64,000 nucleotides of DNA, from assembly GCA_001797465.1 (NCBI GenBank), contig MGPQ01000005.1, positions 95,032-159,031 of the forward strand, given 5' to 3'. A program made the position numbers and the translations under genes. Positions 6,734-58,868 of this stretch are shown one piece after another. Position 1 is the stretch's first letter, and each line of letters opens with the position of its first letter. The notes under the pieces were generated by a model. The model saw only the letters and a program-made list of their open reading frames with translations, searched no databases and was not told where the DNA came from. Source of the DNA: Deltaproteobacteria bacterium GWB2_55_19 (lineage in GTDB: Bacteria; Desulfobacterota; GWC2-55-46).

Positions 6734-6760
6734 TTGACAACCAGTTGAAGTTGTTATAAT
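6734..6760 (+). promoter_or_regulatory. sigma70-type promoter (TTGACA / 15-nt spacer / TATAAT) upstream of the riboswitch
   Basis: Both hexamers are exact matches to consensus. The spacer is slightly short at 15 nt. Confidence 0.4.
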
Positions 6761-6767
6761 CTCGTTT

Positions 6768-7035
6768 TAAATTATGGGTGGCCCGAGAGGGCCTTAAAAG
6801 GGAAGTACGGTGTAAAACCGTCGCGGACCCGCCGCTGTAACCGGGGATGAAAGCCGCAAAATGCCACTGTCTGTAAGGACGGGAAGGCGCGGCAAGTAGG
6901 ATGAACCGGGAGCCAGAAGACCTACCCTAATGTCATAATTTGTCTGCCTTCGTGGTTGGAGGCTAGGCTTATTTTCGAGGATGAAAAACGGCATCCCCGG
7001 ACCTATTGTCATGAGGTCCGGGGATTTTTTTATTT
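6768..7035 (+). promoter_or_regulatory. cobalamin (B12) riboswitch with intrinsic terminator expression platform
   Basis: Conserved cobalamin-riboswitch blocks are present: AAAAGGGAAGTACGGTG, CGGACCCGCCGCTGTAACCGG, the GCCACTG..GGGAAGG core, and a B12-box-like AGCCAGAAGACCTACC. The hairpin CCCCGGACC..GGTCCGGGG (6995-7023) is followed by a T-run. Confidence 0.8.
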
Positions 7036-7173: not shown

Positions 7174-7830
7174 ATGCATATCGAACCTGGATTTGTCTCA
7201 GCGGCAAAGGTGATGGGCGCGAACGCGGCAGTTGTTGGTCTTTTGATTTTCTATCTGAAGAGGTTGATCAGGCATCCGCTGGACATCTTCAAGGTCTTAT
7301 TGGCGGCTGTTTTCTTTTCGGTTTTCATGCAGAGCTTCCACATGAGCGTCGGACCGTCGGAACTGCACTTTATCGGAGCCATGTCGATATATCTGACCCT
7401 CGGTTTCATTCCGACGATGTTTGGGTTTGCCGTTGGTCTCCTATTGCAGGGACTCCTGTTTGAGCCGATGGACCTGCCACATCTCGCGGTGAATTCCTTG
7501 TCGCTAATAGTGCCGCTCATTACCGTTCACTATGTCGCAGGCAGAAAGCTTTTCGTCAAAGGCCTCAGGCAAAGGGTGTCATGGTCAACCATCTTGAAGC
7601 TTGACGGCATCTATTATGTGGGGGTCACATCAATGGTCGGTTTCTGGCTGCTCATCGGGGAAGTTGAGACGCCTTTTTCAGCCTGGATGGCCTTTGCAAG
7701 CTCGTATCTGGCGGTTGTGGCGGTAGAACCCTTTATCACTCTTTTGACTGTTAAAACACTAAAGAGATATGAGAACTCGCCTGCCGTAAAGAGGCTCTTC
7801 GTTGTTGATAAATTAAGTCTTGAGGCATAA
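7174..7830 (+). CDS. CbiM/NikM-like ECF-type S-component membrane protein (cobalt or corrinoid uptake candidate)
   Basis: A 218-aa multi-TM protein with the N-terminus MHIEPGF (Met-His start as in CbiM/NikM). It lies directly downstream of the B12 riboswitch. Confidence 0.5.
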   Translation: MHIEPGFVSAAKVMGANAAVVGLLIFYLKRLIRHPLDIFKVLLAAVFFSVFMQSFHMSVGPSELHFIGAMSIYLTLGFIPTMFGFAVGLLLQGLLFEPMDLPHLAVNSLSLIVPLITVHYVAGRKLFVKGLRQRVSWSTILKLDGIYYVGVTSMVGFWLLIGEVETPFSAWMAFASSYLAVVAVEPFITLLTVKTLKRYENSPAVKRLFVVDKLSLEA

Positions 7831-10236: not shown

Positions 10237-11112
10237 TCAGGACCGGCAGATGCCTGACCTGTGGCTCGGCCAGTCGAAAACAAATATCCTGCTGTTACAG
10301 ATCCTGTCCTGAAACCTGTCCATGCATTGATTGCCGATAAGCTTCGTAAGAGTGACGTAATCCCTGTTGCTCGTCCCTATAAGAGGCTTTTTCCTCTCAT
10401 ATCTCCCGTCGATGACATCATAGAGGATGTTCTGCTCGGCTGAACTTCCAAACTGACCGCCCAATTCGTCTATCACGAGGAGATCGACGTCTATCATCTT
10501 CTTTATTACCTCTGATGCCCTTTCTTTTGTACCGTCCTGCCAGGATTCCTTAACTCGCCGGAATAATTCCGCTGCTTTGACATACTTTGCGGAATAACCA
10601 CGGACCGCCAGAGACTGCACCGCAGCGCATGCCAGATGCGTCTTACCGGTCCCTGGACTGCCAAGGAATAAAAGCCATGTGCCGAGCTTTCTTATGGTCT
10701 CGAAATTTTCAGTATAGGTCCTGGCTACATCAGCCACTTCAGATTGTTTTGCACTCTCAACTCTGTAATCGTCAAACGTCTTACCCAAAAACAACTCGTT
10801 AACGCCGGTCTGTCTGATCCTGACATCCGTAATCGTCGACATGCCTGCATACTTGAATCTGGTATCCGTCACCGCCGGAGACGAACGTGAATTATCGGGC
10901 TGATTTAACGCCCCGCCGCAGCCGCACGGTGTAGGAACCCATCCAGGTCCCGACAATCCTGTATGCTTGAAAAGAAACGATAGACTCTCGCCTATCCAGA
11001 TATATTGAAGATCGGAGCCGCAATAGGGACACGTAGATACCGGCTTGGACGGTCTTTTCTCCGAATATGAATGCTCCATTAAGTCGCTGATTTTACAAAT
11101 ATTGCTCTGCAT
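10237..11112 (-). CDS. DnaC/IstB-like AAA+ helicase loader with N-terminal zinc finger
   Basis: Walker A LLFLGSPGTGKTHLACA and Walker B LLVIDELG are present. An N-terminal C..C zinc ribbon is also present. Confidence 0.7.
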   Translation of the reverse strand: MQSNICKISDLMEHSYSEKRPSKPVSTCPYCGSDLQYIWIGESLSFLFKHTGLSGPGWVPTPCGCGGALNQPDNSRSSPAVTDTRFKYAGMSTITDVRIRQTGVNELFLGKTFDDYRVESAKQSEVADVARTYTENFETIRKLGTWLLFLGSPGTGKTHLACAAVQSLAVRGYSAKYVKAAELFRRVKESWQDGTKERASEVIKKMIDVDLLVIDELGGQFGSSAEQNILYDVIDGRYERKKPLIGTSNRDYVTLTKLIGNQCMDRFQDRICNSRIFVFDWPSHRSGICRS

Positions 11113-11115
11113 GTT

Positions 11116-12261
11116 TTAATTCACCTCCAGAAACGGCAGTTTATTCCTTTCGAGTATGTGGTCGGGAACGCCGAAGTTCTTAGCGGCCAGCTTTACAACC
11201 TGGCTGTTTTTCCGCCAGAAGGCTTCTATGTCAGCAAACTTACTCCTGAATTTCGCAAGGCTTTTTACTTCATCGCCGAAAATCCAGTCAACATTCCTGC
11301 CTGCCGGAGAGGTATCCCTGTAGTAAAGATACAGTCTGCGTATATAATCCTCCGGATCCTGTAAATCGCGCCTGCCGCCTAGGCTCTTTAGGAGTTCGCT
11401 GAATATTTTAGCTATCCTGCCGCCTCCGTTCCCGTTAAGTTTCTCGGGTGGAGAGTTTTCCCAAAGCCCGTGATACCAGTCGATAAGACGCCTGATCGCC
11501 GGATCTGCCTGCTTCTCTTTCGCCTTTGCCTTCAACTTCGCATTCGTTTTTGCTTCACCGCTGTTTTTATCGAGCGCGAATGTATTTAAGTCTTTAGTAT
11601 TTATACTTGTCTTTGTATTTAATAATTTCGTGGCACCTCCAGCATGCCGGGATTCAGCAATATGACGCTTTTCAACTGGAATCGCCTCAGGCTGCCCGCT
11701 CTTCACAATCTTGTCAGCCTGTTTTCCACCTTCTTGTTTGTCGGTTTTCAGCAAGCTGGTGTTTTTCATGATGAATTGTCCCAGTTTGTTAGTTTCTAGG
11801 GTACTTGTCTGCTGGTTTTTGGCATTATGTTGATCTTCAAGAAGGATTCCCTCGGGCTGTTTAACTCCAACAATCTTGTCCGCTGATCTCCTCACACTTG
11901 TTTGCTGGTTATCAGCATTATGTTGATTTGAAAAGAAAATCCCGCTGAAGAACGCGTTTATCCTGTCCATGTTGAGCCTGTAGTAAAGCTTGCGTGGGCA
12001 ACCTGCGTATTTTTCTTCCAAGAACCCGAGATCCTTGAGCAACCTTCTCGAGGACTCCTGTTCGCACCTTGACAACCCTGTTTCCTCGCTCATCTCACGT
12101 TGTGTCTTATTAAGCCATCCGTCCGGAGTCTGCTCCTCCCCCTTCCAGTAAAGCATCTGACACAAAAAAATCGTGGCCGTAACGCTGCCCGTTAAAGGAA
12201 CCAGCCCCGGATAATAGGCGATAGGTTTCCCGATTCTCTGCAAATAGTCGGTCAGATGCAT
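11116..12261 (-). CDS. replication initiator (phage O / DnaD-like winged-helix N-domain); start taken at the ATG at 12261 with GAGGAG RBS
   Basis: The segment LTGSVTATIFLCQMLYWKG..GWLNKTQREMSEETGLSRCEQESSRRLLKDLGFL has the pattern of Phage_rep_O-type initiators. The longer 457-aa ORF in the table would overlap the upstream small gene by 200 nt. Confidence 0.4.
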   Translation of the reverse strand: MHLTDYLQRIGKPIAYYPGLVPLTGSVTATIFLCQMLYWKGEEQTPDGWLNKTQREMSEETGLSRCEQESSRRLLKDLGFLEEKYAGCPRKLYYRLNMDRINAFFSGIFFSNQHNADNQQTSVRRSADKIVGVKQPEGILLEDQHNAKNQQTSTLETNKLGQFIMKNTSLLKTDKQEGGKQADKIVKSGQPEAIPVEKRHIAESRHAGGATKLLNTKTSINTKDLNTFALDKNSGEAKTNAKLKAKAKEKQADPAIRRLIDWYHGLWENSPPEKLNGNGGGRIAKIFSELLKSLGGRRDLQDPEDYIRRLYLYYRDTSPAGRNVDWIFGDEVKSLAKFRSKFADIEAFWRKNSQVVKLAAKNFGVPDHILERNKLPFLEVN

Positions 12262-12287
12262 CTCTTTACTCCTCAAAGATTCGGAAG

Positions 12288-12521
12288 TCACTTCAACAAG
12301 GTTCCGCAATAAGTAAATAACAACGTCAAGATAAGCAGGATGATCGTCAGGCCGAACCTTCGAACAACAAGGGCATACATACTCATCACCAGAAGCGCCG
12401 AAGCAAAAATATGTGCCGTAAAGCCATAGAACAGGGTTGATATCAGATAGAACCACCATTCTCTGTAAGCTTCCGGCGTCACACCCCAATTTGTAGGATT
12501 AAAGTACTCAAAAGAAGACAT
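12288..12521 (-). CDS. small two-TM membrane protein
   Basis: A 77-aa hydrophobic protein. Coding status is uncertain. Confidence 0.3.
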   Translation of the reverse strand: MSSFEYFNPTNWGVTPEAYREWWFYLISTLFYGFTAHIFASALLVMSMYALVVRRFGLTIILLILTLLFTYCGTLLK

Positions 12522-22529: not shown

Positions 22530-22587
22530 TTCCTCCTCCTTTCATAGGGCTTGTAAACCTGAATTTCATAATCTCCTCTCCTTTTCT

Positions 22588-22671
22588 GAAATAAAAAAAG
22601 CCACAGGAAAAGATTCCCGTGGCTTTATGTTCGTGAGACCTACTGAAATAACTACATGTCTGTATATTACC
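22588..22671 (-). repeat. conserved intergenic element, copy 3
   Basis: It has the hairpin GCCACAGGAAAAGATTCCCGTGGC plus the core. A partial second hairpin copy (22686-22707) lies just upstream on the minus strand. Confidence 0.75.
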
Positions 22672-22725
22672 TCTGAAATAAAAAAGGCCACAGGAACCAC
22701 CATGGCCTCGATGTTTTTAAAACTC

Positions 22726-28628: not shown

Positions 28629-29708
28629 TCATTGGAAGTCGCCTACAATAGTTGTGCACCTACAACCAATATCGCATGTGCATTTTGCGTAAGGAAGCTC
28701 AGGCACACTCTCCACTTTGTACTTCTTTCCACCGATCTTTTGACATTCTGCGCAAGTATTCCCGTCATCGACGCTGCTCACTTCGACTGTCTTAACCCGA
28801 GCTTCCTTGTAACCCGCCATATTGCGGAGGTGGGCGGCATAAAAGACAAACATTCGGCAAGCAGCATCGCTGTCCAGGCGGCTGCCTGTTTCAAAATCAT
28901 CCGGCAGCCAACGTCCTGCGATGTTTATACCCCACAACTGCATCATCGCGGCGGATAGACGCAATTTGTCGAGTCGATCTTCCTCTATATCCTTCAAGAT
29001 TTCTGGCGTCCTTTCAAAAATTATCTTTAACGACTCGACACCTGGTTCAACATCGTAGTCTTTCCAGTCGATTCCGAGGCCACGCGGAAATATTTGATAA
29101 GTTTCATACTGAGCAACGATACGAACGGCTTTCGAGAACTCTTTCCTCACTAGAAGGTCAACAACGTCACGCTCTGCAGCGTCTCTCTTTGCTTTTTCGC
29201 CTTCGAGATAATGCTCTGCGAGCCGCATCCCCTCTTTTGTGCATCGGTATATATCAAGGCCCTTCGTTGCGTCACGCATTGATTGCTCGTCGTTCTCAAT
29301 GAGGCGCTGGATAAGTTCTTCCTTGCGGCCGGAAATCTTTAAACCCCTCTCCTTTAGCATCGGTTTAAGATCGGAGACCTTGAATTTATAGTCCACGAGT
29401 TCTTGCAATCCCGCCGGTTCCAGCACCCCTTCTTTAAGAAATTGCTCAATGACTTTAAGAGGTTTTTCCTTGAGTACTGTTTCCCAATATTCGGCACCAC
29501 GGTATCTATCGGTGGAATCACCGCTTCGGAATTTGCTCAATAGAAGCAAATGTGCTGGCGAGTTTCTCCAATCCTTCTTACGCAACCAACCAAACATGCC
29601 CCTTCCTCTCTTGTGTGCCCTAACGTTTTGGTGAGCGGCGCGGCAATTAGAGGCGTCCGCTGTCTGCCAAGAAGTTGTTGCCCGTGCTTCTGCCGCTCTG
29701 GGCTGCAT
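28629..29708 (-). CDS. SAP-domain protein with C-terminal Cys cluster
   Basis: A SAP motif LKPMLKERGLKISGRKEELIQRLI is present. The C-terminus has CAECQ...CTCDIGCRC. Confidence 0.45.
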   Translation of the reverse strand: MQPRAAEARATTSWQTADASNCRAAHQNVRAHKRGRGMFGWLRKKDWRNSPAHLLLLSKFRSGDSTDRYRGAEYWETVLKEKPLKVIEQFLKEGVLEPAGLQELVDYKFKVSDLKPMLKERGLKISGRKEELIQRLIENDEQSMRDATKGLDIYRCTKEGMRLAEHYLEGEKAKRDAAERDVVDLLVRKEFSKAVRIVAQYETYQIFPRGLGIDWKDYDVEPGVESLKIIFERTPEILKDIEEDRLDKLRLSAAMMQLWGINIAGRWLPDDFETGSRLDSDAACRMFVFYAAHLRNMAGYKEARVKTVEVSSVDDGNTCAECQKIGGKKYKVESVPELPYAKCTCDIGCRCTTIVGDFQ

Positions 29709-30031
29709 TATGCCGTAACTGCTTTAGAACGGCGTGATTTTTCCGGTTCAATACTGATTTTCAAACCAACAACATGAAGTAGATTGAAAACGCTTTTAAG
29801 TTCCGGATTGCCTTTCTTAGAAAGCATACGATAAAGGCTTTCTCGATTTATATGCGCTTTTTTTGCGATCGTAGACATTCCGCCGTGAGCCTGAGCCACG
29901 TTTCGCATTGCCAAGAGAAACACCTCTTTATCTCCGTCCTCGATAGCCGCATTAAGATATGCGGCTGCCTCGCGAGGATCTTTTAACGCCTCAATCAGGT
30001 CTTCCTGATAACTCGTGATTTTTTTTGTCAT
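29708..30031 (-). CDS. addiction-module antidote protein (HigA-like, TIGR02684-type HTH)
   Basis: EALKDPREAAAYLNAAIEDGD...MSTIAKKAHINRESLYRMLSKKGNPELKSVFNLL is the typical antidote pattern. It overlaps the toxin stop by 4 nt. Confidence 0.75.
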   Translation of the reverse strand: MTKKITSYQEDLIEALKDPREAAAYLNAAIEDGDKEVFLLAMRNVAQAHGGMSTIAKKAHINRESLYRMLSKKGNPELKSVFNLLHVVGLKISIEPEKSRRSKAVTA

Positions 30032-30360
30032 TGTTCCCTCTCTTTATGGTCTTCCCAGTAAGCTTTTGCCTGTAAGATATCTTTTTTCTGCGTTGATTTG
30101 TCACCGCCGAGCAGCAACAATACCACTGTCTTTCCGTTCAGCGCGTAGTAAACCCTGTACCCTGGGCCGTAATCAATCTTTAATTCATATACCCCTTCAC
30201 CGACATTGCGATTCTTGCCTAAATTACCGAGTCTGACTCTATCCAATCTTATGCGAATTTTTGCCCTTGTAATGCCGTCTAACCCGTCCACCCATTCCTT
30301 GAACGGCTTCTTGTTGGTTGCTGTCAGGTAATACTCGATAGTGTACGGATACGTTTCCAT
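30028..30360 (-). CDS. addiction-module killer protein (RelE/HigB superfamily, Gp49-like TIGR02683 type)
   Basis: FKEWVDGLDGITRAKIRIRLDRVRLGNLGKNRNVGEGVYELKIDYGPGYRVYY..LLLLGGDKSTQKKDI matches the killer-protein family. Confidence 0.75.
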   Translation of the reverse strand: METYPYTIEYYLTATNKKPFKEWVDGLDGITRAKIRIRLDRVRLGNLGKNRNVGEGVYELKIDYGPGYRVYYALNGKTVVLLLLGGDKSTQKKDILQAKAYWEDHKEREQ

Positions 30361-30477: not shown

Positions 30478-30515
30478 AAAAAAAGCCCGAAGGAAACCCT
30501 CGGGCTGATTCATCT
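30478..30515 (-). terminator. intrinsic terminator after dnaN-like gene
   Basis: On the minus strand the hairpin GCCCGAGGGTTTCCTTCGGGC is followed by TTTTTTTCGTATTTTTC. Confidence 0.5.
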
Positions 30516-30585: not shown

Positions 30586-31674
30586 TCAGTTCATTACGGG
30601 CATTATTAGGTTGAAATACCCAGTCGTATCCGCCGGCTTAACGACTATCGCACTGGCCTCGTCCTTAAATTCCAGCCTGACCTTCTCTCCTTCTACAGCC
30701 CTTACCGCTTCGGTCAAGTAGGAAGAGTTGACCTTTATCTTCAGGCTCTCTCCGCTATACTCGGCCTCGGATTCCTCTGTCTCATCGCCTATATTCGAGA
30801 GCGAGGATATGGTCAGGCCCTGCGGATTCATATCGAGTGTCACCATGGAATTCCTGTTCTCGAGTATGATCATCGCGCGTCGCAGCATGGCCATTAATGC
30901 CTCTCTCGACATGACAAGAACCCTGTTGTTTACGCTCTCTCCCGGAACAGCCTTCTTGTAATCCACGAAATCAGCGTGTATCAAGGAGACAACTACCTTG
31001 ATGTTACCGTCTCTCAGAACGAAATAGGTCTTATCCGCCCCGATCATAACGGTTCCTTCCGCCTTTTTAAGAAGGCGCTGGACTTCACGGACACCTGCTT
31101 TCGATATAAAAAGACTGTCTTTCAGCTCTATTGGACCCTCAATACATGCCAGCCTGTAACCATCGGTGGCGACAGCCCTTGCAGCAGTTGTCCCGTCTTT
31201 CTCAAGAAAGAGCCCGTTGATAAAAATCCTGTCATTTGCTATGGGAACCGCGAATACGGTCTTCTCTATCATCCCCCTGAAAGTCTTGCCATCCACCGGA
31301 TACATAGCGCTTTCGTCGATGGAAGGAAAGGAAGGATAATTGTCAGGAACAGGAACCTTTCCGTTGAAAGAGACTCTGGTCTTCTCCGACTTAGCCGTTA
31401 ACTTCGCTTCCTTGGCTGAAAGGGCCACGGAGTCACCCGAAAAAGTCTTCAAAACCTCGTAAAATTTATTGGCATTGACCAGAAATGCACCATCCTTGGC
31501 TATATCTGCCACATCTGTCATAGCAGACAGATAAACACCATCCTTCACGATCTGCACCTTCGCGGTCAGATGGCCAGACGAAGCCTCTAACAACAACTCA
31601 TCGGTATCCCCGACCGTTGATGCCACGATGTCGAGAACGCGCTGTAGTTCCTTTTTGACAACCATTATTTTCAT
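30586..31674 (-). CDS. dnaN: DNA polymerase III beta sliding-clamp homologue (divergent)
   Basis: A 362-aa protein with three-domain clamp architecture. It carries ATDGYRLA and the C-terminal YFNLIMPVMN motif. Confidence 0.7.
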   Translation of the reverse strand: MKIMVVKKELQRVLDIVASTVGDTDELLLEASSGHLTAKVQIVKDGVYLSAMTDVADIAKDGAFLVNANKFYEVLKTFSGDSVALSAKEAKLTAKSEKTRVSFNGKVPVPDNYPSFPSIDESAMYPVDGKTFRGMIEKTVFAVPIANDRIFINGLFLEKDGTTAARAVATDGYRLACIEGPIELKDSLFISKAGVREVQRLLKKAEGTVMIGADKTYFVLRDGNIKVVVSLIHADFVDYKKAVPGESVNNRVLVMSREALMAMLRRAMIILENRNSMVTLDMNPQGLTISSLSNIGDETEESEAEYSGESLKIKVNSSYLTEAVRAVEGEKVRLEFKDEASAIVVKPADTTGYFNLIMPVMN

Positions 31675-31708
31675 CTACTTCCTCCTTTTCTCTAAAAAAC
31701 GCCTGACT

Positions 31709-33292
31709 TCAGGCGATATTTAAGGTTTTGACACCTTTCTTCGTCTTCAGAGTCATGATTCTTTCACTGATATCGATGGAGACAACCTCATGTGGAGAAA
31801 CACCCGCAATTGACAATCCATCCAGCAGGTCGTATATCCTGTACGTCCCGGTGATAGCCATAACGTCCTTCCGTATATCTTCATCGAAGTCATATTTCTG
31901 ACTGTCCCACTGGTCCCCGTCCTCGGAATAGACCCGATTGTCAAAGAAGACGTCAGACACCCCGTAAACATCCTCGGGAGTATCCGCGTAGAAGACATAA
32001 CCGTCACAATAATCCTGGGCTACGGCCACTGCCTTTATGCCCATGTCGGAATCTATGTCGGCCTTGAACCATGTAAGCCGGCCGCAATATTTGCTCTCCG
32101 CATCAGGCACGACTCTAACGGCGCGCTTTCTGTTAAGCGACTTCAGCCATTCAGGACGCCTTTCCGGTAGATTTACGGCCGTTACCGCCCCTTCCGGGAG
32201 GCATACGCCTTCTTCGTCGAATTCGTATGCCTCAATGCCTTCCAGAACCAGCTCTTCGTTAACCGGCAGGGGGTCGCCTCTGCCGATTATGCGGATCTCA
32301 TGGTCCCTGCCTGAGCCATAAGAGCCGTCATGGTGAGGCTCGTATACTTCCACGTAGAACCTGTCGAGGTTGTTAAGCTCATCCTGCGTTCCCAACGCCC
32401 CCATGATTTTCATCCTTTTCTCAAGTTCATGAAAAGGGATCTCCTTCTTAAGGTCGTTAATCGCGGACATGGACTCCTTGACGACCGTATCTCTCACGAA
32501 CTGCCAGAATGCCTCAAGCTTCCCGTCGTGTTTAACAGTCCTACGGTAAGGCAGCACAGGAGTCACCGGAGACCCGTTCACCACGTCCATAACCACGGAT
32601 GGACGCCATCTAAGGTTATGATTTATAGGAATGCCGTACCAGACGACGAACATCTCCCTCACCAGCTTTTCAGGGACATCGTAAAAGGAACAGTCCAGCT
32701 TGATGTATACCGGGTTGGACTCATACATCGTCTTTATGCCGTAGTCGCCAAATTGCTCTTCTGCCTTTTTTTCAGGTAAACGGGTCCCGTTGATTATTAT
32801 GTCTAACGGGAACCACTGGAGCAGTTCCTGATCCAGCACCTTATCTTTCACCTCTGACCTGAGGCGCGCCTCTATGACAAAACCATCAAAGCGCATATCC
32901 GGATTTATGCCTTCCAGCACACTCAGCCTGTATTCATGGTCTACAAGATACCTCTTACAATCAACCCTGACCGTGCCGAACCTGCTCGTGAAGACGACTT
33001 CCTCCGAAATGCTGTAGAGAAAGAACAGGCCCCAGCCGGCTGGCTTTTGGTTCTCTTCGACTTCCTCGGGCCAGTTGGAATCAGCCAGCACAAAAAGGGA
33101 CATTGGGTCAACAGCACCGGAACCGTTATCGATAGTTTTAAGCACTCCGTCCTTCAGCGTTATATTCAGCCCGGTTGCCCCTGAACGGACCGCGTTCTGG
33201 GCTATTTCAACCAACACCGACGAAGGGTGGTCGAAGAAGTAAGGCAGAAGATTAAAAAGCCGCTCCTCGTTTATGGTTTTCTGCAGTTGCAT
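31709..33292 (-). CDS. GHKL/HATPase_c (Bergerat-fold) ATPase, MORC/MutL-like N-domain, unknown C-terminal region
   Basis: An N-box VEIAQNAVRSGAT (E-x3-N-A) and a G1 box IDNGSGA (DxGxG) lie near the N-terminus. The protein is 527 aa. Confidence 0.5.
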   Translation of the reverse strand: MQLQKTINEERLFNLLPYFFDHPSSVLVEIAQNAVRSGATGLNITLKDGVLKTIDNGSGAVDPMSLFVLADSNWPEEVEENQKPAGWGLFFLYSISEEVVFTSRFGTVRVDCKRYLVDHEYRLSVLEGINPDMRFDGFVIEARLRSEVKDKVLDQELLQWFPLDIIINGTRLPEKKAEEQFGDYGIKTMYESNPVYIKLDCSFYDVPEKLVREMFVVWYGIPINHNLRWRPSVVMDVVNGSPVTPVLPYRRTVKHDGKLEAFWQFVRDTVVKESMSAINDLKKEIPFHELEKRMKIMGALGTQDELNNLDRFYVEVYEPHHDGSYGSGRDHEIRIIGRGDPLPVNEELVLEGIEAYEFDEEGVCLPEGAVTAVNLPERRPEWLKSLNRKRAVRVVPDAESKYCGRLTWFKADIDSDMGIKAVAVAQDYCDGYVFYADTPEDVYGVSDVFFDNRVYSEDGDQWDSQKYDFDEDIRKDVMAITGTYRIYDLLDGLSIAGVSPHEVVSIDISERIMTLKTKKGVKTLNIA

Positions 33293-33377
33293 TTAACAAC
33301 CCCCTTTTCTTTTACAATTTTTAATGCCGTTAAAATAAAACCTCGCCTTACGTTTTCTCCATAGTCCTCCTTTTTTT

Positions 33378-33458
33378 GAAATAAAAAAAAGCCACAGGAA
33401 AATTCCTATGGCTTTTTATTCGTTCACCTACTGAAAAAACTACATGTCTATATATTAC
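33378..33458 (-). repeat. conserved intergenic element, copy 5
   Basis: It has the hairpin GCCACAGGAAAATTCCTATGGC plus the core. A 4-codon mini-ORF (MEKT) follows the hairpin on the minus strand. Confidence 0.75.
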
Positions 33459-33472
33459 TTCAGACTACAACT

Positions 33473-34588
33473 TCATCTCTCTTCCGGGTAAAGCACCGTA
33501 ACCACCCATCCTCCCGGATGGCGCTCAGGGAAACCCCATATCTCGCCTGTAGGATGGGATACTTTTATGATCCCGGAAATCCCCTCGTCAAACTTCTTTT
33601 TCACTTTGCTCATAATCTCGTCGACATCGGGCAGGGCCGCAACAGTTTGAGTCGCTACGTAAGTCGCTTTCCGCGGTTTGCTCTTTTTGTCTTGATACTC
33701 CGGCGGGACAGGACATCCCACCAGGTTAAGGAACCTTAACATGAACTCTTCGCTCCAATCGCCGCAGTTGCCGCAATACGCCATGCCCGACACCTCATCA
33801 CATGAGGACAGATACTGCCTTGCCTCTTCGACTGTCTGAGGGTCCTTACTATAGCAATTCGCACAGACTGGACAGATCGGATGACCGCAGGAAGGGCATT
33901 CAAGGACTTCGGACCTCAACACAGGGACCTTATATATAGCCCTCCCGCCGTGTATATCGCAATAAAATCCGGTTACTCGGATAAGCTTCCCTACAGCCTC
34001 TCTTTCGAGCTTCTTGATTTCCATGCCCAGCTCAAGACTCTGTTCCTCCCCTTCCTTCATTTTCTCACGGAGCGCCAAGACCCTGTTCGCAACATCAACA
34101 GGGATTTCAGCCTTATCGCTTTCGGTGCCTGGTACATACTTCCCGTTGGCCATGAGGGGATATTTTACAAGCCCCATTTGCAGAGCGACCTCAATGTCGT
34201 CTTTATGGTCAAAATGATCCCAGAGAACCCCGGTCTGTGCGTCAGAACAAGCCCTATCAAACGCCCAGCTCTCAATGTATTCATTTTCCTCAATCCCAGG
34301 ACATTCATTGGAAAACAGCCACTCCTTTATCTCGTTGTCACTCTTGCCGGAAAGCTCCGGGTGACCTTTTACAATGCCGTCAAGGTCGTCTTTATCAAGC
34401 TCGTTCCAAAGACATTCATTGATAAAGGCATCTCTGCATTCTCCGCCCTGACACGCCTCCTTTTCATAAAACTTGACTTGCTCCGCTACTGATTCATCAA
34501 AAGACTTCTGGTCCAGCGAATCCCACAACGTCTTCCCTTCTCTCCCTGTGAGTTCATAGCAATACTTTACGCCTTCCGCCATAGACAC
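33473..34588 (-). CDS. Cys-rich hypothetical protein (multiple CxxC zinc-binding clusters)
   Basis: CPSCGHPICPVCANC...CGNCGDW clusters are present. It has its own intergenic element (copy 6) upstream. Confidence 0.4.
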   Translation of the reverse strand: MSMAEGVKYCYELTGREGKTLWDSLDQKSFDESVAEQVKFYEKEACQGGECRDAFINECLWNELDKDDLDGIVKGHPELSGKSDNEIKEWLFSNECPGIEENEYIESWAFDRACSDAQTGVLWDHFDHKDDIEVALQMGLVKYPLMANGKYVPGTESDKAEIPVDVANRVLALREKMKEGEEQSLELGMEIKKLEREAVGKLIRVTGFYCDIHGGRAIYKVPVLRSEVLECPSCGHPICPVCANCYSKDPQTVEEARQYLSSCDEVSGMAYCGNCGDWSEEFMLRFLNLVGCPVPPEYQDKKSKPRKATYVATQTVAALPDVDEIMSKVKKKFDEGISGIIKVSHPTGEIWGFPERHPGGWVVTVLYPEER

Positions 34589-34597
34589 CTCCGTTTT

Positions 34598-34682
34598 TGA
34601 AATAAAAAAAAGCCACAGGAAAATTCCCGTGGCTTTTATGTTCGTGAGACCTACTGAAAAAACTACATGCCTATATATTACC
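34598..34682 (-). repeat. conserved intergenic element, copy 6
   Basis: It has the hairpin AGCCACAGGAAAATTCCCGTGGCT plus the core. The stop codon of the E1 gene lies inside the core. Confidence 0.75.
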
Positions 34683-35453
34683 TTTGATTCTCTTCCAGGC
34701 TTCGGGGTCGACCGGCAGTGGGTTCACTCTCATCGACTTGAGGTCGATAAAGCACCCGTGATTCTCAAGATGCCCCTGCCTGAAGCCTGTCCAGAGCAAC
34801 TGCACGGCCCAGGATGCGACAATCGTGTTTACCAGCAGGTCCTGATGTTCCAGAGCCACTGCAAGCGAACACGAGGGGCCCTGGGCCTTTTCCTTAACTT
34901 TCGTAAGATCATAAAGTTCGTCTACAGACGGCAAAACTGCTACAGCGTCTCTCCCTGGCGGCTGCGGTATATCCTTGAGAGACCCCAGTATCACCTGGCC
35001 AGTATCCCTTGTATTCCCAGTGTCGAGCCAGTAAAGACAGTGCGAGTCCAAACGGGCTGCCCTCCCGATAACCGTACGAGCCCTGGCCGAATCCACGGCG
35101 GATATCAGGATTGACGGTCGCACAGTATCGTCCGACCTGGAGCCATCGAAGGCGAAGGGACAGGCCTTCCAGGAGAACCCCATGAACTGGTTTATTTTAG
35201 TTACCGAGACCACCGCCTTGTTCCGTCCGACATCGAGCGGGGAGAAGTTCTGCCGCGCGATATTGGCTTCGCTAACATTGTCGTCGTCAAAAACCGACAC
35301 ATTCAGGCCGGGATGCCTTAACTGACATAGGGCGTAATGGAGCCTTGCCAGCCCGGTAAGTATCTGGCTACCGGTGCCGCCGCAACCTACAAGCGCGACA
35401 TAAACAGGTCCATCGGCTGCGGTTATCTCTTTATGCAGATAGTGTTTTTTCAT
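34671..35453 (-). CDS. ThiF/MoeB-family E1-like ubiquitin-activating enzyme homologue
   Basis: The nucleotide-binding Gly loop YVALVGCGGTGSQI is present. The 260-aa size fits a minimal E1. Confidence 0.75.
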   Translation of the reverse strand: MKKHYLHKEITAADGPVYVALVGCGGTGSQILTGLARLHYALCQLRHPGLNVSVFDDDNVSEANIARQNFSPLDVGRNKAVVSVTKINQFMGFSWKACPFAFDGSRSDDTVRPSILISAVDSARARTVIGRAARLDSHCLYWLDTGNTRDTGQVILGSLKDIPQPPGRDAVAVLPSVDELYDLTKVKEKAQGPSCSLAVALEHQDLLVNTIVASWAVQLLWTGFRQGHLENHGCFIDLKSMRVNPLPVDPEAWKRIKGNI

Positions 35454-46120: not shown

Positions 46121-46174
46121 TACGAAGGTTGGATCGGGAATTGTACTAATTTTGTATTAGAATTGGCGGCTGTC
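46121..46174 (+). repeat. direct repeat DR-L (left boundary of the metal-resistance island)
   Basis: GGGAATTGTACTAATTTTGTATTAGAATTGGCGGCTGTC is nearly identical to the copy at 58695-58734. Confidence 0.6.
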
Positions 46175-58682: not shown

Positions 58683-58734
58683 AAGTAATTGAAGAATGAG
58701 GTTTGGGAAATTGTACTAATTTTGTATTCGAATT
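58683..58734 (+). repeat. direct repeat DR-R (right boundary of the metal-resistance island)
   Basis: GGGAAATTGTACTAATTTTGTATTCGAATTGGCGGCAGTC matches the copy at 46136-46174 at 37 of 39 positions. Confidence 0.6.
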
Positions 58735-58868
58735 GGCGGCAGTCCTAAGACTCCAGAGACTCTAAAGACTACAAAGAATGCCACCAAACCCCCTATTATA
58801 TAAGGCAAAACGGGAAATCAAGCCGAATATCAGGGAGTTGCGTTTTTGGGCTTAATTGCCCTCAAAAT

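Follow-up and report, generated by a model that had tools for sequence, protein, structure and literature searches.

A GHKL-type ATPase gene beside a divergent dnaN gene in a PRTRC-type conjugative element of a deltaproteobacterium

A 64,000-nt stretch of contig MGPQ01000005.1 from Deltaproteobacteria bacterium GWB2_55_19 (hereafter the window) harbors two neighboring genes, one coding for an ATPase with GHKL (Bergerat-fold) motifs and the other for a homologue of DnaN, the beta sliding clamp of DNA polymerase III (Pol III). This arrangement raises the question whether both proteins work as a pair or are separate tools of the mobile element that encodes them. An earlier note, made from the sequence alone, regarded them as a possible clamp-dependent DNA-processing or defense/anti-defense module. 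Both open reading frames were found where that note had placed them, and they contain the motifs quoted there (the N box E..NA, DNGSG, ATDGYRLA and YFNLIMPV):

31709..33292, minus strand: ATPase gene, 527 aa
30586..31674, minus strand: dnaN-like clamp gene, 362 aa

Our analysis gives about an even chance to the view that ATPase and clamp are separable, co-expressed parts of the replication/establishment DNA toolkit of the element and not an obligate pair. This view is based on observed features, namely the fold and motifs of the proteins, the distribution of the ATPase family, the gene contexts and the independent capture of clamp genes in related elements.

The element-borne clamp and its neighborhood at related loci

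The 362-aa protein is a full-length DnaN-like clamp as had been assumed, because all three clamp domains (PF00712, PF02767, PF02768) were detected above their cut-offs and the match to TIGR00663 reached 183.6 bits (cut-off 137.65). Among the NCBIfam models it matched only those for DNA polymerase III subunit beta and no PRTRC model. Clamp structures in the PDB were matched with E values down to 6e-32 and with the cleft-region motifs aligned, and the PHROG family phrog_947 ('DNA polymerase processivity factor') was matched with E = 4e-48. At the sequence level, the cleft motifs ATDGYRLA and the C-terminal GYFNLIMPVMN are retained. Length, three-domain structure and cleft motifs are thus common to the element clamp and the chromosomal DnaN proteins described by TIGR00663, whereas location and divergence set it apart. 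Chromosomal dnaN genes occur in a dnaA-dnaN-recF-gyrB context, which is absent at the clamp locus; here, the gene belongs to a type IV secretion system (T4SS) element and is situated between the GHKL gene and a toxin-antitoxin pair. Setting aside copies with 88-91% identity, which come from relatives of the same element, the best match among 5.8 billion proteins was only 31% identical. The two nearest of these relatives with at most 31% identity that were checked proved to be chromosomal dnaN genes with a dnaA-dnaN-recF/gyrB context, and the same is true for a third one further down the list. Because the best relative is so distant and the nearest ones checked are chromosomal, the clamp is an old, fast-evolving, element-borne extra copy and not a housekeeping gene, in line with what the earlier note had suspected from the sequence. 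Its remark that extra clamps on mobile elements are uncommon also agrees with our survey, in which dnaN homologues were found in 92 of 72,556 plasmid records (~0.1%), several of them Mb-sized replicons.

Whether ATPase and dnaN form a conserved pair was analyzed at loci with ATPase homologues (18 from genomes and 78 from metagenomes), which were searched with hidden Markov models of the clamp and the ATPase. Lineages were defined at 70% identity, and about 33 of them were informative. An adjacent dnaN was found in two of these ~33 ATPase lineages, and a third one (L003) has dnaN at a distance of 8.8 kb from the ATPase gene. Given that the ATPase gene is part of the backbone in ~33 lineages and dnaN is adjacent to it in only two, both genes do not form a conserved module. 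The two lineages correspond to two tight, non-sister clades in the ATPase tree, and these dnaN-bearing clades are nested within dnaN-less ones. In the clade of the window (the window and L021-L023), dnaN is located 33-36 nt downstream of the ATPase gene, and in the other clade (11 loci) it is located 8-122 nt upstream on the same strand; the adjacency is present in every member of both clades. The clamps of the two clades are not mutual closest relatives, each of them groups with different chromosomal clamps, and they therefore represent independent captures.

The tree also bears on the explanation that we face a plain housekeeping locus, i.e. a chromosomal dnaN beside a degenerate gyrB-like gene. 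The chromosomal arrangement dnaN-(recF)-gyrB likewise puts a GHKL gene after dnaN, and the clade with the upstream dnaN shows the order dnaN-ATPase. However, neither dnaA nor recF nor gyrB is found at the locus, which is part of a T4SS element; Toprim and GyrB domains are missing from the ATPase, and the order in the window is ATPase-dnaN. Moreover, the ATPase family is far wider than its association with dnaN, so that the probability of a housekeeping locus is regarded as negligible. The related view of the ATPase gene as a degenerate gyrB that was acquired along with dnaN was rejected because of the nesting of dnaN-bearing within dnaN-less clades.

The gene order around the captured clamps differs between the lineages. 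It reads ATPase-dnaN-variable cargo-Gp3-primase in the clade of the window, methyltransferase, F54, dnaN, ATPase, F55 and DnaG-type primase in the clade with the upstream dnaN, and UvrD-Gp3-like-dnaN at L003. In all three dnaN-bearing lineages, dnaN is no farther than one to three conserved backbone genes from a Gp3-like gene or a primase gene, and in two of the three it is adjacent to the ATPase gene. The sister clade (52-54% identity) shares the backbone with the window (PRTRC, 371-aa, 150-aa, ATPase, variable cargo, Gp3, primase, DUF6094) and carries a PIN/MazE toxin-antitoxin system or other cargo in the place of dnaN. Among relatives with 91-97% identity, the genes directly past dnaN vary; dnaN therefore occupies the margin of a cargo hot spot located between the ATPase gene and the Gp3/primase module.

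The two independent adjacencies with opposite gene order represent some evidence of a functional link, and because of them direct coupling of both proteins stays a live, though rather doubtful, rival explanation. According to it, the ATPase would be a clamp-dependent DNA-processing factor with a MutL-like logic, docking on a beta clamp loaded at primer termini of element DNA; the host clamp would serve most members of the family, and a dedicated, co-expressed one would have been gained in two lineages. The short distances on the same strand in non-sister clades and the retention of the adjacency in all clade members, in the clade of the window despite varying cargo, are consistent with such coupling, as are the preserved cleft-region motifs of the clamp. 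On the other hand, 31 of the ~33 lineages lack an adjacent dnaN, the distant dnaN of L003 stands beside a Gp3-like gene, and both insertion sites are variable regions. The structure of the ATPase provides further arguments for both sides.

Fold and family of the ATPase

Three parts can be distinguished in the ATPase:

32843..33292, minus strand: residues ~1-150, Bergerat-fold GHKL ATP-binding domain with E29, N33, D55xGxG59, A85GWG88 and G106
32447..32842, minus strand: residues ~151-282, transducer-like second domain with TPVLPYR and K258
31712..32446, minus strand: residues 283-527, beta-rich and helical C-terminal region

The N-terminal domain has the alpha/beta sandwich of the Bergerat fold, with the N box E29-IAQ-N33-A and the G1 box D55-N-G-S-G59. 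In an alignment of 43 homologues with identities down to 32%, E29, Q32, N33, R36, D55, G57 and G59 are invariant, as are the G2-like A85-G86-W87-G88, G106 and the residues P245, L247, P248 and R250 of the TPVLPYR motif, while K258 is nearly so. E29 and N33 align with the corresponding N-box residues of MutL, whereas the stretch aligned after the N box contains an Asp in E. coli MutL and the invariant Arg (R36) in the ATPase family. The sequence P-A85-G86-W87-G88 follows a lid-like segment with a low predicted local distance difference test (pLDDT) score; its spacing is plausible for a G2 box but the motif is atypical. Judged from conservation, R250 and K258 might be candidate gamma-phosphate sensor residues. 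The AlphaFold2 (AF2) model of the ATPase reached a pLDDT of 87.8 and a predicted template modeling (pTM) score of 0.77, and its low-confidence parts are restricted to the first residues and the lid-like segment 60-90. Comparison of the model with solved structures gave the following matches (score, aligned residues):

TRAP1/Hsp90: 16.0, 352 residues
MORC3: 13.9, 230 residues
ParE: 13.7, 237 residues
MutL: 11.6, 199 residues
Topo VI-B: 11.6, 247 residues
histidine kinases: 6-7, about 80-117 residues

The best overall match is to Hsp90/HtpG-type proteins, at a template modeling score of only ~0.4, and the alignments of ~200-237 residues to MORC3, ParE and MutL span the ATP-binding and the second domain, the latter being covered also by the longer alignment to TRAP1 (~350 residues). 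The family profile matched the MutL N-terminal domain among the PDB sequences with E = 1.2e-4, the similarity being in motifs I-II. The ATPase has the Bergerat fold, the N box and the G1 box in common with the N-terminal domain of MutL, with MORC and with Hsp90/TRAP1, and probably also a G2-like motif and a second domain of the transducer type. The same working principle as in GHL ATPases, an ATP-driven N-terminal dimerization of a constitutive dimer, appears probable. In contrast to these proteins, it has no nuclease, Toprim, CW or client-binding features and is encoded in conjugative elements.

The statement that no kinase, MutL or gyrase C-terminal domain can be recognized in the ATPase was borne out by library scans and structure comparison, and the same is true for Hsp90. 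None of the Pfam, NCBIfam, PADLOC and PHROG models matched the protein, including the MutL, MORC and Hsp90 models of the first three libraries and the NCBIfam models for the PRTRC components (A-F, ThiF, ParB). Neither a DHp/HisKA domain nor a phospho-accepting His before the ATP-binding domain, as in sensor histidine kinases, was found. Toprim and DNA_gyraseB gave no Pfam match, a conserved A-subunit-like gene was not found nearby, Pfam HSP90 did not match, and the C-terminal dimerization/endonuclease domain of MutL with its nuclease motif is absent. Residues 283-527 are modeled with confidence, yet they have no counterpart among solved structures; these C-terminal 245 aa alone matched neither the C-terminal domains of MutL, gyrase, Hsp90 or MORC nor any other solved structure. 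A match to a well-known family such as the sensor kinases, for which the earlier note had proposed to search the C-terminal part, was not found. Taken together, the ATPase is best filed in the GHKL/GHL superfamily as a new, unnamed branch whose C-terminal domain is novel.

Regarding direct coupling to the clamp, the MutL N-terminal domain is the closest sequence-level relative among solved proteins, and MutL is an established client of the beta clamp (PMC4678855). However, the C-terminal domain of the ATPase is unlike that of MutL, and a clamp-binding motif of the QL[SD]LF, QxxLxP or Q..[LIVM].[FLP] type was not found in its sequence, where QxxLxxF-like strings are confined to structured regions. 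Clamp-binding motifs usually lie in disordered tails or linkers, and the AF2 model shows no disordered tail or linker able to carry one. The N-terminal box INEERLFxLLPYFF occurs throughout the family, with or without dnaN, and probably belongs to the GHKL N-terminal strap. The GHKL fold, the co-located extra clamp and the twice-independent adjacency speak for the clamp-dependent module of the earlier note, whereas the poor conservation of the pair and the absence of a canonical QLxLF-like motif speak against it.

The family is large. Initially, 85 clusters of homologues without any Pfam domain or functional name ('hypothetical protein' at most) were found, and with a threshold of E <= 1e-3 an exhaustive profile search returned 2,407 representatives (50% clusters). 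Of these, about 60 are full-length, while most others among the matches listed share only the first ~280 residues. The family occurs in conjugative elements of Desulfobacterota and Nitrospirota and, more distantly, on plasmids of sphingomonads and others; 80 plasmid records with similar N-terminal matches include sphingomonad, Methylomonas, Deinococcus and Paraburkholderia plasmids. One example is the uncharacterized 'ATP-binding protein' WP_010890904.1 of the conjugative plasmid pNL1, whose gene is located between ParB and ArdC genes. It is homologous over residues 21-270, i.e. the GHKL and transducer module (hhalign probability 99.2%), and has the motifs PAGxG, FPL..NG and (L)P.R in common with the window ATPase. 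However, both proteins are only ~23-25% identical, their C-terminal halves are not alignable, the pNL1 gene has no adjacent dnaN, and the pNL1 protein just reaches the cut-off of Pfam HATPase_c whereas the window ATPase stays below it.

PRTRC genes, DUF6094 methyltransferase, SNF2, ParB, RadC-like and primase genes recur as neighbors of ATPase homologues, and at the metagenomic loci DUF6094 methyltransferase, a 177-213-aa protein, a RadC-like JAB protein, SNF2 and ParB are frequent beside the ATPase. In conjugative elements, such a gene set typically belongs to establishment or anti-restriction regions. The ATPase gene is a backbone gene of a PRTRC-type conjugative element family. Our literature search on PRTRC, GHKL proteins with sliding clamps, plasmid DnaN and leading regions found no description of the ATPase family or of an ATPase-clamp pair, and a paper on anti-defense genes of leading regions mentions neither GHKL proteins nor clamps (PMC11541004).

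Some further observations were made on the family. The commonest downstream neighbor of the ATPase gene in other clades is a RadC-like JAB protein of ~140 aa with an HNHPSGD motif, encoded right after the ATPase homologue in L005, L013, L015-L017, L031 and L037-L040. SNF2 and ParB genes often come next, and no copy of the JAB gene is present in the window. Many ATPase homologues end with L-x-L-A-A, resembling an LAA degron of the ssrA/ClpX type, and at L001 a ClpX-like gene is found 2 kb downstream of the ATPase homologue. The window protein ends with TLNIA.

Transcription signals and the surrounding element

Several signals were identified around the two genes:

33366..33464, minus strand: copy 5 of a ~100-nt repeat, between the gene for a 371-aa protein and the ATPase gene
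31700..31715, minus strand: weak hairpin with a 6-bp stem (CGCCTGAAGTCAGGCG, followed by T6), overlapping the ATPase stop codon
30484..30506, minus strand: strong intrinsic terminator with a stem of 10 bp, 7 of them GC, and then T7
19294, 20138, 22639, 27253, 33427, 34650, 39297, 42009 and 45810, minus strand: positions of the conserved box of the repeat

The spacer between the ATPase gene and dnaN (31675..31708) comprises 34 nt and contains an AAGGAGG ribosome-binding site. The terminator that had been noticed after the clamp gene was found again; it sits 80 nt past the dnaN stop codon (30506..30484) and closes the ATPase-dnaN unit. The hairpin at 31715..31700 might partly terminate or attenuate transcription between the ATPase gene and dnaN. 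Since its conservation among close relatives is only rough and a sigma-70-like promoter was not detected before dnaN, co-transcription of ATPase and dnaN is likely but might be attenuated. The lack of a promoter-like site between both genes would also fit their direct coupling.

The repeat occurs in nine copies in the window, all on the minus (coding) strand, while 0.07 copies would be expected by chance. Each copy is ~100 nt long (e.g. 22578-22676 and 34589-34687) and carries the conserved box GTAATATATAGACATGTAGTTTTTTCAGTAGG and after it a GC hairpin with a T-run, which in copy 5 forms a terminator-like structure at 33417..33386. The copies are intergenic and precede several backbone genes or operons, and in those that were read the ribosome-binding site of the next gene comes after the T-run of the repeat. 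The repeat sites are conserved among close relatives, copy 5 being found at the same position in L021 and L022, and Rfam gave no match. The repeat could represent a promoter combined with a leader-terminator (attenuator/antitermination) unit, or a terminator module. Copy 5, upstream of the ATPase gene, might drive the gene pair as had been assumed, but a sigma-70-like promoter was not detected within it.

The window as a whole represents a conjugative element with T4SS transfer genes (TrbI, TraK, coupling protein) and metal-resistance cargo (Cus-type efflux, P-type ATPase). Its DNA-processing genes code for ribonucleotide reductase (RNR), SNF2 helicase, DUF6094 methyltransferase, primase, ParB, Gp3-like, ArdC and Mre11-like proteins, and an SbcC-like ATPase of the SMC/Rad50 type as well as a DnaC/IstB-like ATPase are also present. 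Relatives occur in Syntrophorhabdus, Nitrospirota and 'delta proteobacterial' genomes, on chromosomal contigs of Mb scale, and the family therefore behaves as integrative conjugative elements. Immediately upstream of the ATPase-dnaN pair, a complete PRTRC ubiquitin-like cassette is encoded (E, C, B/E2, A/JAB, ThiF/E1), whose A, B, C, E and ThiF proteins scored above the NCBIfam cut-offs.

PADLOC defense models gave no match at the locus, and the neighboring genes are backbone genes of the element rather than defense genes. The neighborhood (ArdC, ParB, RadC-like, methyltransferase, primase) is an establishment/DNA-processing region and not a defense island, which speaks against the proposed defense/anti-defense module. 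A related possibility is that the clamp alone serves as an anti-defense, immunity or decoy factor, which resists clamp-targeting toxins or host interference or titrates clamp-binding host proteins during establishment, with the ATPase being unrelated. Other cases of a resistant second dnaN are known, among them griselimycin self-resistance. The extreme divergence of the clamp (at most 31% identity), a region rich in genes of the establishment/anti-restriction type (ArdC, ParB, methyltransferase) and the cargo hot spot beside a HigB/HigA-like toxin-antitoxin pair would suit such a function. However, in addition to the lack of a PADLOC match, the three domains and the cleft motifs are intact as in a working clamp, and dnaN is found a few genes from a Gp3-like gene or a primase gene in three lineages; hence, an anti-defense clamp is considered improbable.

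The proximity of the PRTRC cassette suggests still another explanation, in which the clamp is a target or platform of ubiquitin-like (Ubl) conjugation by this cassette, comparable to PCNA ubiquitylation, and the ATPase is another accessory. In the window, dnaN comes two genes after PRTRC ThiF, at L003 it follows ThiF at 4.6 kb, and about half of the ATPase loci have PRTRC genes within 10 kb. On the MOBH plasmid pS121-1b of Aeromonas salmonicida (L108, NZ_MF495478.1, 5856-13275), dnaN is even situated inside the PRTRC cassette, between PRTRC ParB and PRTRC ThiF. Because of this arrangement and of 14 Aeromonas plasmid records with a dnaN homologue and 13 with PRTRC ThiF, the Aeromonas plasmids suggest a recurrent clamp-PRTRC association. 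The clamp of pS121-1b resembles that of the window in being an extra, mobile-element-borne copy beside PRTRC, but its place relative to the cassette differs. It is, like the phage clamps of phrog_947, about 25% identical to the element clamp, and clamps of these types have therefore been acquired independently of the window clamp. Against a PRTRC-linked function, the clade with the upstream dnaN has both dnaN and ATPase with no PRTRC genes within 10 kb, most PRTRC plasmids (ThiF in 355 of the 72,556 records) have no dnaN, the 92 records with dnaN come mostly from other taxa, the Aeromonas locus has no GHKL homologue, and the literature gave no PRTRC biochemistry. We therefore regard this explanation as very improbable. 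A GHKL neighbor was also not found at the other plasmid dnaN loci inspected (Sphingomonas, Rhodanobacter and Sphingosinicella besides Aeromonas); the Sphingomonas dnaN shows the chromosome-like dnaN-recF-gyrB context. The 553-aa neighbor of the Sphingosinicella dnaN is not a GHKL protein. The best plasmid match to PRTRC ThiF, on Pelobacter pPRO1, offered no useful context.

Other genes and signals of the window are listed here as side observations:

33473-34588, minus strand: Cys-rich protein of 371 aa that matched no family, encoded between PRTRC ThiF and the ATPase
29708-30360, minus strand: toxin-antitoxin pair past the dnaN terminator
28629-29708, minus strand: 359-aa protein with a SAP DNA-binding domain
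10237-11112 and 11116-12489, minus strand: gene for a DnaC/IstB-like AAA+ protein and, before it, one for a 457-aa protein that matched no Pfam family
6758-6943, plus strand: cobalamin riboswitch (121.7 bits)
7174-7830, plus strand: CbiM-like cobalt transporter gene downstream of the riboswitch
46136-46174 and 58706-58744: 39-nt direct repeat, 92% identical

The gene of the 371-aa protein is kept at the same place in the clade of the window and the sister clade, the latter having an extra 150-aa gene that overlaps the ATPase start codon (L020, 9552-10004). The toxin-antitoxin pair and the SAP protein are encoded in the variable cargo spot. The pair is HigB/HigA-like, with a 110-aa toxin (phrog_3445) and a 107-aa repressor/antitoxin (phrog_4268), and the SAP protein also matches a phage Mu F-like C-terminal region, although weakly and below the threshold; this combination is unusual. 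The DnaC/IstB-like and 457-aa proteins could be a replication initiator/helicase-loader pair of the element or an IS21-like remnant. Riboswitch and CbiM-like gene are found on the opposite strand within the conjugation-gene region. The 39-nt repeats flank the metal-resistance block (P-type ATPase, EamA and an RND efflux trio) and may mark an inserted cargo module.

Possible roles of both proteins in the element

Regarding ATPase and clamp as separable parts of one toolkit, the following scenario is proposed. ATPase activity, dimerization, a DNA substrate and the contribution of the clamp to element replication are inferred here. The ATPase would be an ATP-operated, dimerizing 'molecular clamp' of the GHL type, composed of the Bergerat site, the transducer and a lineage-specific C-terminal domain, the latter presumably serving constitutive dimerization or the binding of DNA or a partner. 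It probably acts on the DNA of the element itself around transfer, replication or establishment. The clamp would be a rare accessory that was captured long ago from a chromosome and entered the cargo hot spot separating the ATPase gene from the Gp3-like/primase module. Most likely it provides the element with its own processivity platform for host Pol III and the host clamp loader, which would work on element DNA primed by the element primase. The DnaC-like loader, RNR and the helicases may be further parts of the same toolkit.

Three points weigh against this scenario. First, the dnaN adjacency arose twice, in both orders, and was kept amid cargo change, which exceeds purely random insertion unless both sites are hot spots. 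Second, the function of the ATPase is deduced from its predicted fold alone. Third, neither a DNA polymerase nor a clamp loader was identified among the window open reading frames scanned against Pfam, and the partners of the clamp are therefore assumed to be host proteins. A bolder combination would make clamp, ATPase and PRTRC cassette one establishment machine, in which the clamp is loaded on incoming or replicating element DNA as a platform for the ATPase and possibly as target of Ubl conjugation, a bacterial analogue of PCNA ubiquitylation; in a milder form, the ATPase would be a new clamp-dependent GHL enzyme belonging to conjugative elements. We consider this combination a long shot.

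Collectively, our data describe a large family of GHKL enzymes that is named by no curated library and whose tail domain, although predicted with confidence, has no structural match. GHL ATPases such as gyrase, MutL, MORC and Hsp90 are ATP-gated clamps with important functions on DNA or client proteins, and a branch associated with conjugation is therefore a worthwhile target. Moreover, the repeated capture of clamps near the ATPase gene and a primase gene suggests that some elements bring along a processivity factor of their own. Finally, the recurring nearness of clamp genes to the uncharacterized PRTRC ubiquitin-like cassette provides a testable lead.

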